Assembly (NCBI GenBank): GCA_964016885.1
Contig: OZ024741.1
Span: 313,658,001-313,722,000 of the forward strand
From: Eledone cirrhosa
Taxonomy: Eukaryota
Direction: 5' to 3'
DNA length: 64,000 nt
The notes beneath the pieces were generated by a model. It was given only the letters and a program-made list of their open reading frames with translations. It was not told the DNA's origin and searched no databases. Each line of letters begins with the position of its first letter. The first letter of the stretch is position 1. This document shows, piece after piece, positions 2,655 through 64,000 of the stretch. The position numbers and the translations under genes were made by a program.

Positions 2655-2786
2655 AATGCCGAGCAGGAACGTGTGGTGCTTGTAATGGGACATGCCATTG
2701 TATCAACAGTATAAATTGTGACAAGTGAAATGGAACATGTTCAGATGAATGTTCTGCAGGTTATACTGTTATCAATTGCCAAGAAT
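2655..2786 (+). pseudogene. Dead EGF exon (class E)
   Basis: Acceptor intact; 3-nt deletion; CGA>TGA stop (GAC AAG TGA); donor reads GAAT|at instead of GAAG|gt. Confidence 0.85.
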
Positions 2787-2959
2787 ATATCTCATAAAAT
2801 TGTTACGTACTTACTACACACACGCACAAGCACATACCCCCACCCACCCCCACAAATATACATATATGTATATATTTATATATATATATATATATATATA
2901 TATATATATATATATATATATATATATATATATATATATATATATATATATATATATTA

Positions 2960-5430
2960 ATATATATAGTTATACTTGAGGAGGGTCATATTGTTGTGAT
3001 AATTTTGCCAGAAATAATAACAGAACACACTCACTGTTTGGTTGGTTTTCGCTTTTGTATGTTTTATATCTCCATAGTTAATTTATTTGGCAATCAATGT
3101 TTATCATTGATTGACCAACGGTCAAAAATACAGATATAAATATTTATATATAGTTTAAAAAAGTTATTTCGTTGCACATCTGCAACATCATCAGTGGTAC
3201 TAATATGTAACCCTCCTATTGTATTAAAAGTCTACGCCATTTATACTTTATCTGTTTATTTATTTATTTTTATTTATTTTTGACTTCGTCCATGCGCATG
3301 CGTTTGCGTGTGTGTATATTGTTTGGTGTGTGAGTTCGCGTTTGGGTGACTATGTTTTGGTTATTGTATTCTATCTTAGTTTATTAGTGTGTCTTTATAT
3401 GTGTTTCTTCTTGTTGTGCTTGTGTATATATTCATTTATGTATTTATTTATTTACGTATTTATTTATTTATTTATATTTCTCTTATGTCAGTATTCTTTG
3501 TTTGGTTGTTGGTATTCCATTCATTTTTTGTTTAGCTTTGTCTTTTTAAACTGTGTTTCGCTTGCGTCTTTGATGTGCCTACTTGCTGGCTCATTTCTAT
3601 ATGTAGATAATATTTTAATTTCTATGTCTTACCGTCATGTTGTTGTCTGGACTATTCGTATTGTACTGAACGTTTATTTTGTTATTTTAATTCCCCCCAA
3701 TTTTGGTCTATATATTCTCCTATGCATCGAGCTCTCGCGACTATGTATGGTGTTGTCATATTTCTGCAAGTAGCCTCTGTACATCTTATGCTATAAACTA
3801 CATTTCTAGTTTTACAGTTTATCTGGGGGTTTAATTTACATATAGCACATTTCTTATTAGTACAGTAGGTTTTCTTAAAAGGGTCTGTTTTGATCATCCG
3901 GGATTGCATAGCAGTTCCTGATTTTACTAACCCTTTCATCTTTAAGTAGGTCATTCTCAGGGCCTTTTTGCATCGGGTAGCTAATTTCCCTCCAGGGGTA
4001 GCGTCCACGAGAATGACACTTTGGTATCTCTGGTTGTGGTACCATGAGGTGGTTTTACCTATTTTATGTTTAGTCCTATCTAAGATATTCCATGATTTGC
4101 TCCTGTATAATGGGCAAATTCCTTTCATCTGCAGTTCTATGAGGGTCTTATACATCTCAGTGGTTCCTTTGTATGCTCTGATTCTATCTCTTTGGTTGTA
4201 GCCAGAGAAATGCATGTGCTTTATGAAGTGTTGGATGTGTCTTTCCATTTCTGTTGGGTCGCACATGCGGGACACGTTCTTCATCACTCGTACCAAGTCA
4301 GCGATTAGAATATTAAACTTAGCACTACTGGACATCGCTGAGGTTTTGAATAACGGGTATTTGGAGGCCATGGGTTTAGCGTAGTATGAGTTGGGATTTT
4401 GGGCCTTCACGTATATAGTGTTAATCCAGAGTTCCGTATCTAATACAGGTAGTCTATTATTAGGGTGATTGGAAGGGTATTCAATAGTTACAGTTATACT
4501 CTGGTGTATGGAGTTAGCTATCTGCTGGATTCTTTATTCTAATATATATTCGTTAGTACTCTCTCGTGGCGGTGTACTTATTACTATATTAATATTGTCT
4601 ACGTAACGAGAGTACATGGACCTCTCTTGAAGGAGGTTTTGAGTCTCATTTCCCAGCAAACCATAAAAAGGTTGGCAACATCACCAGCTATGTTGATCTA
4701 AATGGTTGCTGCCTCATTTTGGGTGTAGATCTTTACGTTGAATAGGGTAGTTTTAATACTTGCCCCATTGCATGCGCGACAACTTTTCTTACCTGATCAT
4801 TGTTTTTGGGTGTTGGTATGGCTTTAGTCCACCAAATTCACCCTCCCATGGAAGTCTTTTTTGCCATTGAGGTTATGGTGGGTGGTCTACTTCTTATGGG
4901 TCTACTAGGGCAGAAACGGCTAAGAACACGGCTGTCTAGATACTTGGTGTCATAGGTAAGTCTAAGTAGGAGGCCCAATTCATCTGTGTCTACGTCGCAG
5001 ACCACAACCTCACTCTCACTGATTATCTCCACACAAGTTTCCACAGCAAAATCAATGTTAATGGATGGTTATAGAGATACAACGTCCATACTGCGTATTA
5101 TGCAGTTAGATAGGTTTTTGTTTTTGTTGCACTCATTGATTCTGGGGATATCTTGATTAAGGAGCGTATAACCACTGAGAGGAAGTAGGAGATCCTTTAG
5201 TTGCTAGCGATATTGGCTACGCATACAAGTCTTGTTGGTGGATCTGTCACCGGGTCGTCGAGTATCTTATGGTCTTTGAAGAGCACATATAGGGGTGGTA
5301 TGTCATTGTTAGACGCGTGTATGTTCATAGCAGTGGGTCTGCTTGGCTTTAGGATGTCGGTCCTCATCATCATGTTAGCGTTGACGATCTCCTCTCACCC
5401 ATCATGTGTTTGTTGTGTAATTTCGCCTGG
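2960..5430 (-). mobile_element. Penelope-like element family A (RT + GIY-YIG), degenerate
   Basis: YAKPMASK, LIADLVRVMKNVS, SGY thumb motifs, then C-x-C...RNVVYSIRC...PYI(G) endonuclease; hammerhead core near the end; abuts (TA)n. Confidence 0.82.
3150..3203 (-). ncRNA. Hammerhead-ribozyme core in Penelope A terminus (paralogs ~11830-11883, ~36978-37030, ~46065-46118)
   Basis: Minus strand: CTGATGA t GTTGCA gatg TGCAAC GAAA; perfect 6-bp stem II; stems I and III decayed. Confidence 0.6.
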
Positions 5431-62300: not shown

Positions 62301-63273
62301 TGTGTCCGTACTTTGAATTTGGTTGCACCTATCATGTTCATGATGTCGAGTTCGAAGGCATCGAGCTGGGGGTTATTTGTGGAATTTTTCCAGGATTTGA
62401 ATCCGTATTTTTTCCTAGTAAATTCCTCCGTGTTATTAGCGTGTCCTTTATCGTAATGATAGGCCTTCCATCGGATTCGACGGATGAAGTCAATAATCCT
62501 TGTTTGTATGTATAGGTATTTTTTTCAATGACATACCCATGTGGTGCTTTTCCATTTTAGTGCCGTGCGTTAAAGTTATTGCTCAACCTAGTGTGAGCTG
62601 GGTATATGGGGTAACAAGTTATCGTTATAGGTAATCCATTTACAGGTTGTCAGTACTCTGCGTCGTGGATAGTTTTAACGTTCTGCTTTGTTTAACTCAA
62701 CAAGATGTTTCCATAGTTAGGCAACGCGTTCGCGGTAATTCCTATGTAGGTTATACTTGGAGTAATAACAGTGAAAGTATGAAGTGTAACATGGTTGGTT
62801 GTACATCAAGGGACTTTGTATGTTTCGAATATGACTTTTCATGTTAGCAAAAAACCACAACACAATCCTTATACGAACAACACTTACTCACCACCACCAC
62901 TATCATGCTCTGCACTTACATGGTCTCACTTATTCTTATTACTTTATATTTTTCCATTTTCTTATCTTTTTTCTTATCTTTTAATTTTTACTTTTACATC
63001 TGTAACCTCTCTACCTATTATCATATATATTTTATTATTGTTGTTATTGTTTTGATTATACGCTATTTCTCTCTATATATCTTGCCTTGAGAGAATTGTT
63101 TTTGTATTATGGTGAGTTGGTCAAAGGTAAATAATATAATGGAGATCGAGTGACGAAACTTCGAACGATTATCGACCTCTAGACGCACCTGATCAATAAA
63201 GCAAGTGTCAATGCCTGAAATAAGGCCCCGTGTTGTACAGCCAAACATGTTAACCTTAATCCTTTCACTATAT
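59318..63273 (-). mobile_element. Penelope-like B, more complete diverged copy
   Basis: NILDVTLNLITG...PFHK...SYNSNHPRSII (127-aa ORF 61104-61487); YIG ORF 60283-60567. Confidence 0.82.
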
Positions 63274-64000
63274 ACACCCTAAATGCCGGTGTAAATCTTG
63301 ATCCGCTGCATATGTCGACCCATCAAATATTGTGGTGTAATTCAGGTTGAAGCCTATATACACCGGTTGATACGACACCCCAGGTATAAGCCATTACCAT
63401 CTGCCCAGCCGCAGATATTCTGGCCGTTAACAAAATGATATAACTGAAGTGTTTTATTAGTAAACAATATGCTATCACACCATCACTTGATAGGCGGAAT
63501 TTTTAAAAACCTAAATACTCCTTATCCAGTGTGTATCATTGTTACGTGGCGATATGATTTTACTTTCGACCTATTTTGTTTCGTTGGGAAACTACCGGAT
63601 ATTTTCCGAGTAGTTTACATAATTCAGTGAATCAGTATACCATTCATATTATAACTATGATATTCGTGATAATATTATAGATATATATGTGTGTATATAT
63701 GTAAGTATGTATGTATTTATCTATGTATGTGTGTGTGTATGTATGGATATATATATATATAGACAGTATATTATTGTAGAATATTGTAATATTTGGACGG
63801 ATTATATATGATATCTTTCTTATTGTATTGTTTGTTACTTTCATAATGTTATTAATATTGCATTTAATTGAACTAAAAATCCAAATATTTGTTCATAAAG
63901 GATCGATATAATCAATAAATCTACAACTTCATTTGTTTAGCACAAGACCACTTTAATCTTGAAATTTGATATAAAATTGTATCATTGATATATGTATGTA

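Follow-up and report, generated by a model that had tools for sequence, protein, structure and literature searches.

The EGF exon array and the predicted gene around it

We analyzed a 64,000-nucleotide stretch of the Eledone cirrhosa genome (the window; G000:C2:313,658,001-313,722,000 in a genome of 3.0 Gb) that carries an array of exons coding for epidermal growth factor (EGF)-like repeats, together with the contiguous region around it (C2:312.858-314.082 Mb). Features within the window are given as positions counted from its start. The window holds 18 EGF copies, 10 intact and 8 dead, plus one acceptor-only remnant, all on the + strand; five shuffled versions of the window gave 0 hits to the exon hidden Markov model. 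The original prediction had described 10 exons of 135 nt in phase 1-1, each with 8 cysteines, and sorted them into four classes. All starts matched, AG precedes and GT follows every exon, no stop interrupts them, and the classes are real: A (6365..6499 and 40231..40365), B (8767..8901 and 42672..42806), C (16388..16522, 25330..25464, 34277..34411, and 59045..59179), and D (22017..22151 and 30509..30643). The dead copies belong to class E (2655..2786 and 36523..36654, both 132 nt with an AT donor and a stop), class F (11006..11140 and 45238..45372, both with an AT donor and a later stop), and class G (15372..15425, reduced to its 3′ part with the acceptor lost; 24286..24339; 33266..33319; and 50585..50638, whose donor is also lost). 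The finding had been taken to begin at 2655, where the copy is dead. At 52508..52610 an acceptor remains from which the exon has been deleted.

The whole window (1..64000, + strand) appears to lie inside one gene. A signal-peptide exon of 64 nt is located 569 kb upstream of it (C2:313,089,081-144, + strand), and a transmembrane (TM) exon of 106 nt is located 286 kb downstream (C2:314,007,700-805, + strand). Exons of both kinds were first recognized beyond the ends of paralogous arrays, and the calls rest on hydrophobicity and exon structure, not on a trained predictor. Local BLAST found no second signal or TM exon between these two, which form the sole + strand pair in the region analyzed. The array between them spans ~925 kb, of which the window is a small middle part; it continues past the window, as had been proposed from a motif at the window's end, which precedes an intact class D exon 45 bases beyond (C2:313,722,045, + strand). 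We counted 158 EGF copies between the signal and TM exons, 156 of them on the + strand. Splice-intact, in-frame, and stop-free copies made up 97 of these 156 (4,364 amino acids in sum, among them 70 distinct sequences; 93 carry at least 8 cysteines), and 59 were broken. Among full-length copies flanked by AG and GT, 97 of 101 were in frame and stop-free, and in the core of the array (313.274-313.764 Mb) all 82 were clean. Introns have a median length of 5 kb, with up to 67 kb between EGF exons and a minimum of 682 nt, and the last intron measures 80 kb. One signal exon and one TM exon thus bracket the array, in support of the proposal of a single gene that lengthens its ectodomain through duplication of exons. 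We favor, with moderate confidence, the reading that the 97 EGF exons are chained into a predicted type I recognition receptor of ~4,400 residues at the cell surface.

Extension of the window had been suggested as a way to find signal-peptide, TM, and cytoplasmic exons, for example of a protein tyrosine phosphatase (PTP). The first two were found, and no PTP exon was found near the locus: tblastn gave none in the 74 kb after the TM exon, and a PF00102 search (113 of 113 candidates scored) gave none on C2 beyond 262 Mb. We found no further exon in the interval from the signal exon to the first EGF copy. Low-copy blocks that we first read as 5′ exons were rejected as LINE remnants, and a block after the signal exon was rejected as coding sequence for its frame-breaking indels. 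Tail candidates near 314,009,542 and 314,014,290 were likewise set aside, with no frame convincingly common to all paralogues. Upstream, two genes of the family stand head to head 77 kb apart, at C2:313,012,210 (− strand) and 313,088,930 (+ strand), and in each of them the same half-exon precedes a divergent EGF exon.

Between 313.48 and 313.72 Mb, the array is built from a higher-order repeat of ~22.5 kb with seven slots in the order E A B F G C D, and the exon classes are the slots of this repeat. Slots A to D are live and slots E, F, and G are dead; E and F have a common GT-to-AT donor change, and G is without its 5′ part. Neighboring units are 97 to 98% identical, and the window comprises a complete unit, two re-duplications of part of a unit, and most of a further one. 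We ruled out an assembly artifact, as neighboring units differ by 2 to 3% across 22 kb and have rearrangements of their own. Dead slots have been copied together with live ones, and the array has therefore grown by block duplication, likely through unequal crossing-over. Such crossing-over between intron cassettes would add and remove blocks of exons, and the 1-1 phase of every exon would keep the reading frame through each gain or loss. The repeated intron cassettes also include a 400-bp inverted repeat pair (16850-17251 and 20187-20586, and copies) and Penelope/LINE-like remnants on the − strand (12902, 38360, 47134, 57373, and 61100-62032). A second, independent recent expansion at C2:313,301,916-313,341,087 consists of near-identical exons spaced 1 to 4 kb apart and has no dead slots.

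Selection on the EGF exons and on the TM exons of the family

We compared substitution in intact and dead EGF copies, with intactness defined by splice sites and stops and not by cysteines. Tree-based counts for 94 intact copies gave 0.31 changes/site at the first and second positions of cysteine codons versus 2.58 at fourfold sites, whereas 27 dead copies gave 1.19 and 1.11, respectively; this contrast in cysteine protection was significant (Fisher test, P value = 3 × 10−5). Within the young repeat, cysteine-breaking or stop changes numbered 0 of 40 in classes A to D versus 4 of 6 in the donor-dead class F (P value = 9 × 10−5). Parsimony counts over 86 distinct rows, with residue classes for the scaffold and the remainder picked after seeing the data, gave an omega of 0.08 for cysteines; for 11 other residues of the scaffold it was 0.19, and for the 25 left over it was 1.65. 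Positions 3, 5, 20, and 28 each change faster than synonymous sites (P value ≤ 0.0009 for each). The cysteine/glycine scaffold is conserved in live copies, and other positions change fast. The exon also holds two N-glycosylation sequons, at residues 11 to 13 and 26 to 28, and changes at position 28, which is among the fastest-changing sites, toggle the second sequon on and off.

A genome search with one EGF exon placed nearly all of the best 150 of 1,372 candidates in C2:310-315 Mb and C10:25.8-27.3 Mb. Searches with the TM exon gave 38 matches at ~37 places (37 of 37 candidates scored), and searches with the signal exon gave at least 41 matches (40 of 59 candidates scored); the ~37 TM and ~40 signal exons sit in two clusters. 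The sequences define a family of ~37 predicted genes with the architecture signal peptide, EGF repeats, TM segment. In two of the C10 genes, less than 21 kb separates the TM exon from the signal exon of the next gene, and tblastn found no PTP exon between C10 genes.

We then looked at the TM exon across the family (n = 36 stretches). All 33 exons that were called were intact (33/33) and had frame-keeping lengths; 3 TM stretches and the second copy in stretch L177 gave no full call. The 15 TM exons of 91 nt had a dN/dS of 1.88. Across these 15 equal-length exons, the exon distance was 0.27 compared with 0.06 for the downstream intron and was the higher of the two in 104 of 105 pairs; the synonymous distance of the exon (0.18) also exceeded that of the intron, to which intron conversion or multiple hits may contribute. 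Signal exons, called in 11 of 12 stretches, were all intact and diverge like their flanks. Positive selection on a TM exon that changes faster than its introns is unusual. The original prediction had proposed a variable recognition receptor, and the signature of one is borne out by the conserved cysteines, the fast-changing other sites, and the divergence of the TM exons. Selection would keep the disulfide scaffold while diversifying the TM segment and the rest of the repeat, a pattern expected of receptors for host-parasite or self/non-self recognition.

Lesion order and the splicing of the array

If the exons form a chain, the gene is ruined by a stop or frameshift in one that is spliced, and the loss of a splice site skips a single repeat, so that lesions striking splice sites first favor a chain; if each transcript takes one exon, stops and splice-site losses are equally tolerated. 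The splicing mode had been held to be unreadable from DNA, but the order of lesions bears partly on it. The single-base targets are 21.6 changes for stops versus 12 for splice-site loss. The GT-to-AT donor copies form one clade in which stops and deletions arise later, and one further AT-donor copy (313,823,891) lies outside it. A hand count of independent first lesions, which leaves out 5 doubly damaged copies and truncations, gave 8 splice-only versus 2 to 3 coding-only events, with 64% coding expected (P value = 0.006 to 0.014); the third coding-only event is the deletion of an exonic G at the donor, and 313,181,686, one of the 8 splice-only cases, may have an indel near its end. This count replaces a 14-event test that was dropped because ambiguous cases had been scored as splice-first. 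A copy could be retired harmlessly only through loss of a splice site, after which it would be skipped and decay.

These results bear on the proposal of Dscam-like splicing, in which one EGF exon would be chosen per transcript. Like the mutually exclusive exon clusters of Dscam1, the Eledone array consists of duplicated exons of the same length within one gene. Many variants lie between single constant exons, and nonscaffold positions vary. In contrast to Dscam1, the Eledone exons are whole symmetric domains, and both the lesion pattern and the homologues point to chaining. Under exclusive choice, stops should retire exons as freely as splice-site losses, and they do not; the 1-1 phase imposes no frame penalty on double inclusion, and the shortest intron is 682 nt long. 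As a test for a docking site, we looked for exact reverse complements of conserved 12-mers (37 upstream and 40 exonic): none of these had one in intron 1, and a single one, not convincing, did in the last intron of 80 kb, although a search for exact matches is a weak test. Homologous Octopus proteins chain such repeats, and the compact C10 paralogues have a chain-like appearance as well (8, 15, and at least 32 repeats). Judged from the sequences, default chaining of the EGF exons is most likely and mutually exclusive choice among them is unlikely; that every transcript holds a single EGF exon, as the Dscam-like proposal would have it, we consider highly improbable.

A possible, if doubtful, alternative is that the same gene is expressed through cassette skipping, with variable subsets of exons giving receptors of differing length and order. 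All exons are symmetric, the introns are long (again, a median of 5 kb and up to 67 kb), the repeats include 70 distinct sequences, and the commonest donor (AAG/GTATCT, used by 58 of 97) agrees with the U1 consensus at 6 of 9 positions. Isoforms are annotated for Octopus homologues, and the lesion order would fit skipping as well if transcripts usually hold many exons. However, the dead copies are explained without regulated skipping, and the test for exact 12-mer complements revealed no regulatory element.

Several observations weigh against a single functional chain of 97 exons. An assembly gap of 200 N interrupts the gene at 313,344,137, with 26 intact exons before it and 71 after it by hand count, and the array could be two genes. 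Both ends of the array are decayed, and we identified no cytoplasmic exon after the TM exon. The pairwise dN/dS of the 135-nt copies was 0.96 for intact and 1.17 for dead copies, which taken alone looks neutral, and gene conversion can inflate the site rates of the EGF exons. Four copies with AG and GT at the edges of the array carry a stop or frameshift; in two of them the exonic G before the donor is gone, and a third pairs with an inverted copy next to it. In the fourth, at 313,777,115, the donor is at full strength and the acceptor contains extra AGs; inclusion of this exon would cut the chain short. Another reading is a recently dead or dying gene in which tandem duplication goes on without function. 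The 59 broken copies among 156, the duplication of dead slots alongside live ones, the overall dN/dS of ~1, the four possible poison exons, and the failure to find a tail exon all fit this account, but the protection of cysteines persists in the youngest units (97 to 98% identical) and the signal and TM exons are intact. We regard a dying array as unlikely and retain the chained receptor.

One of the stop-carrying exons (313,190,919) pairs with its own inverted copy 200 nt downstream (313,191,384) at −267 kcal/mol, compared with −118 to −158 kcal/mol for 9 controls. The predicted hairpin would take in most of this exon and might thereby keep it silent.

Relation to known receptors

The closest proteins are the fucolectin-(EGF)n-TM-PTP receptors of Octopus sinensis, with a best repeat identity of 70 to 71%, compared with 50 to 55% for MEGF10, Draper, PEAR1, and a Tie-like receptor. 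No protein in the databases searched exceeded 71% repeat identity, and searches with single exons and for proteins of short length gave no match; such genes are easily missed when the best identity in databases is at most 71%. By profile, the repeat matches MEGF10-type proteins, with Pfam scores below the cutoff. The fourth and fifth cysteines are spaced C-x3-C, not C-x-C, and solved relatives (6u11, Tie2) are two residues shorter between these cysteines of the CxC-initiated unit. An AlphaFold model of a single repeat had low confidence (pLDDT of 62.7).

With MEGF10/MEGF11/PEAR1, Draper, CED-1, and SCARF1/2, the predicted receptor shares the layout of a type I membrane protein with tandem 8-cysteine EGF-like repeats. 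It differs from them in that no EMI domain was found for it, in a best repeat identity of 51 to 55%, in having many more repeats with C-x3-C spacing, and in belonging to a fast-evolving multigene family. MEGF10, Draper, CED-1, and PEAR1 carry cytoplasmic NPxY or ITAM-type motifs. A genome search for EMI (PF07546, the domain that entry IPR011489 also stands for) gave 1 match among 25 scored candidates, on C1, and none near the locus, although this search is weak on split exons. One study counts IPR011489 among the domains required for Aplysia MEGF10 (PMC9334734). Membership in the MEGF10/Draper/CED-1 group, as originally proposed, is therefore not upheld, given the absence of any EMI match near the locus, the lower repeat identity (53 to 55% versus 70 to 71%), and the C-x3-C spacing.

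The Octopus fucolectin-EGF-PTP receptors have the same 8-cysteine repeat of 45 residues. The Eledone gene uses one of their two alternating repeat types, and no fucolectin or PTP exon was found for it. On the + strand, neither tblastn nor PF22633 found a fucolectin exon, with the limit that PF22633 missed one exon found by tblastn. On the − strand, an open fucolectin-like exon, single copy in the region, lies 15 kb downstream of the TM exon (C2:314,022,571-314,022,921); it is the one that escaped PF22633. A 135-nt copy with the same donor occurs at C2:230.39 Mb amid fucolectin and PTP exons, and C2:230-262 Mb clusters fucolectin, EGF, and PTP exons, probably belonging to phosphatase-bearing relatives.

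A close parallel outside cephalopods is in Biomphalaria, where a cluster of scavenger receptor class F-like TM1 genes lies at the resistance locus LG5R and adjoins SudRes1 (PMC13712769); in SudRes1, the loss of an EGF was seen in a resistant snail (PMC12297450). TM1 subgroups 1A and 1E have the same combination of a signal peptide, a Tie2-type EGF region, and a single TM segment in clustered paralogues. Genes with fucolectin and PTP domains are their neighbors, haplotypes differ in the number of EGF repeats, and the regions are linked to parasite resistance. Subgroups 1A and 1E have a small cytosolic part without known domains. The ~97 repeats over 925 kb, the higher-order exon repeat, the dead slots, and the diversifying TM exon of Eledone are not described for the snail genes in the literature covered. 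The fester/FcoR genes of Botryllus (PMC11507803) resemble the Eledone family, by analogy only, as a clustered and diversifying set of ~37 or more membrane receptors in an invertebrate; they differ in their domains (Sushi, and three TM exons in fester) and in that their ectodomain is the most variable part and the TM half is conserved. The limited literature covered did not describe the cephalopod family, a member with 100 exons, or diversification of a TM exon.

The sequences suggest that the gene is real, likely functional, and an extreme case among mollusc receptor clusters of a known kind. From the likeness to Biomphalaria and from the pattern of selection, a role in immunity or recognition may be proposed. 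Cephalopods are not known to have adaptive immunity, and little is known about the variable receptors that they use for recognition. The family is a concrete candidate for such receptors, with signatures of selection and the same architecture as the snail clusters tied to schistosome resistance, and in its giant member the ectodomain would grow like satellite DNA while donor mutation retires exons harmlessly. Only tentatively do we extend this to a cephalopod diversification system, in which ~37 genes would be under diversifying selection, one of them a 925-kb bank of ~100 exons, with cell-specific exon subsets, haplotype differences in length, and a hypervariable TM segment that chooses signaling partners.

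Three sequencing runs (X1 to X3) were rejected as expression data: they come from one sample, which may be the assembly's own, and their reads cross exon-intron borders and behave as genomic DNA. Their contig depth was ~9 to 20 on the TM region and 47 to 103 on most long array pieces, which does not measure copy number and was not used as evidence. Contigs of these DNA runs that cover a TM exon (L141:5694-5960) were covered at roughly half the depth of a contig close by, which hints weakly at two alleles that differ. Elsewhere in the genome, intronless PTP domains occur in long open frames at C14:9,149,860-9,164,507 (three in tandem), C22:17,643,413, and C10:12,086,702. EGF-like exon copies of equal score were present on at least six other contigs (C16, C19, C20, C22, C23, and C27; e.g., C20:3,933,685-5,204,498), and their spacing, often 100 to 135 kb, suggests an exon within a very large dispersed or subtelomeric repeat.

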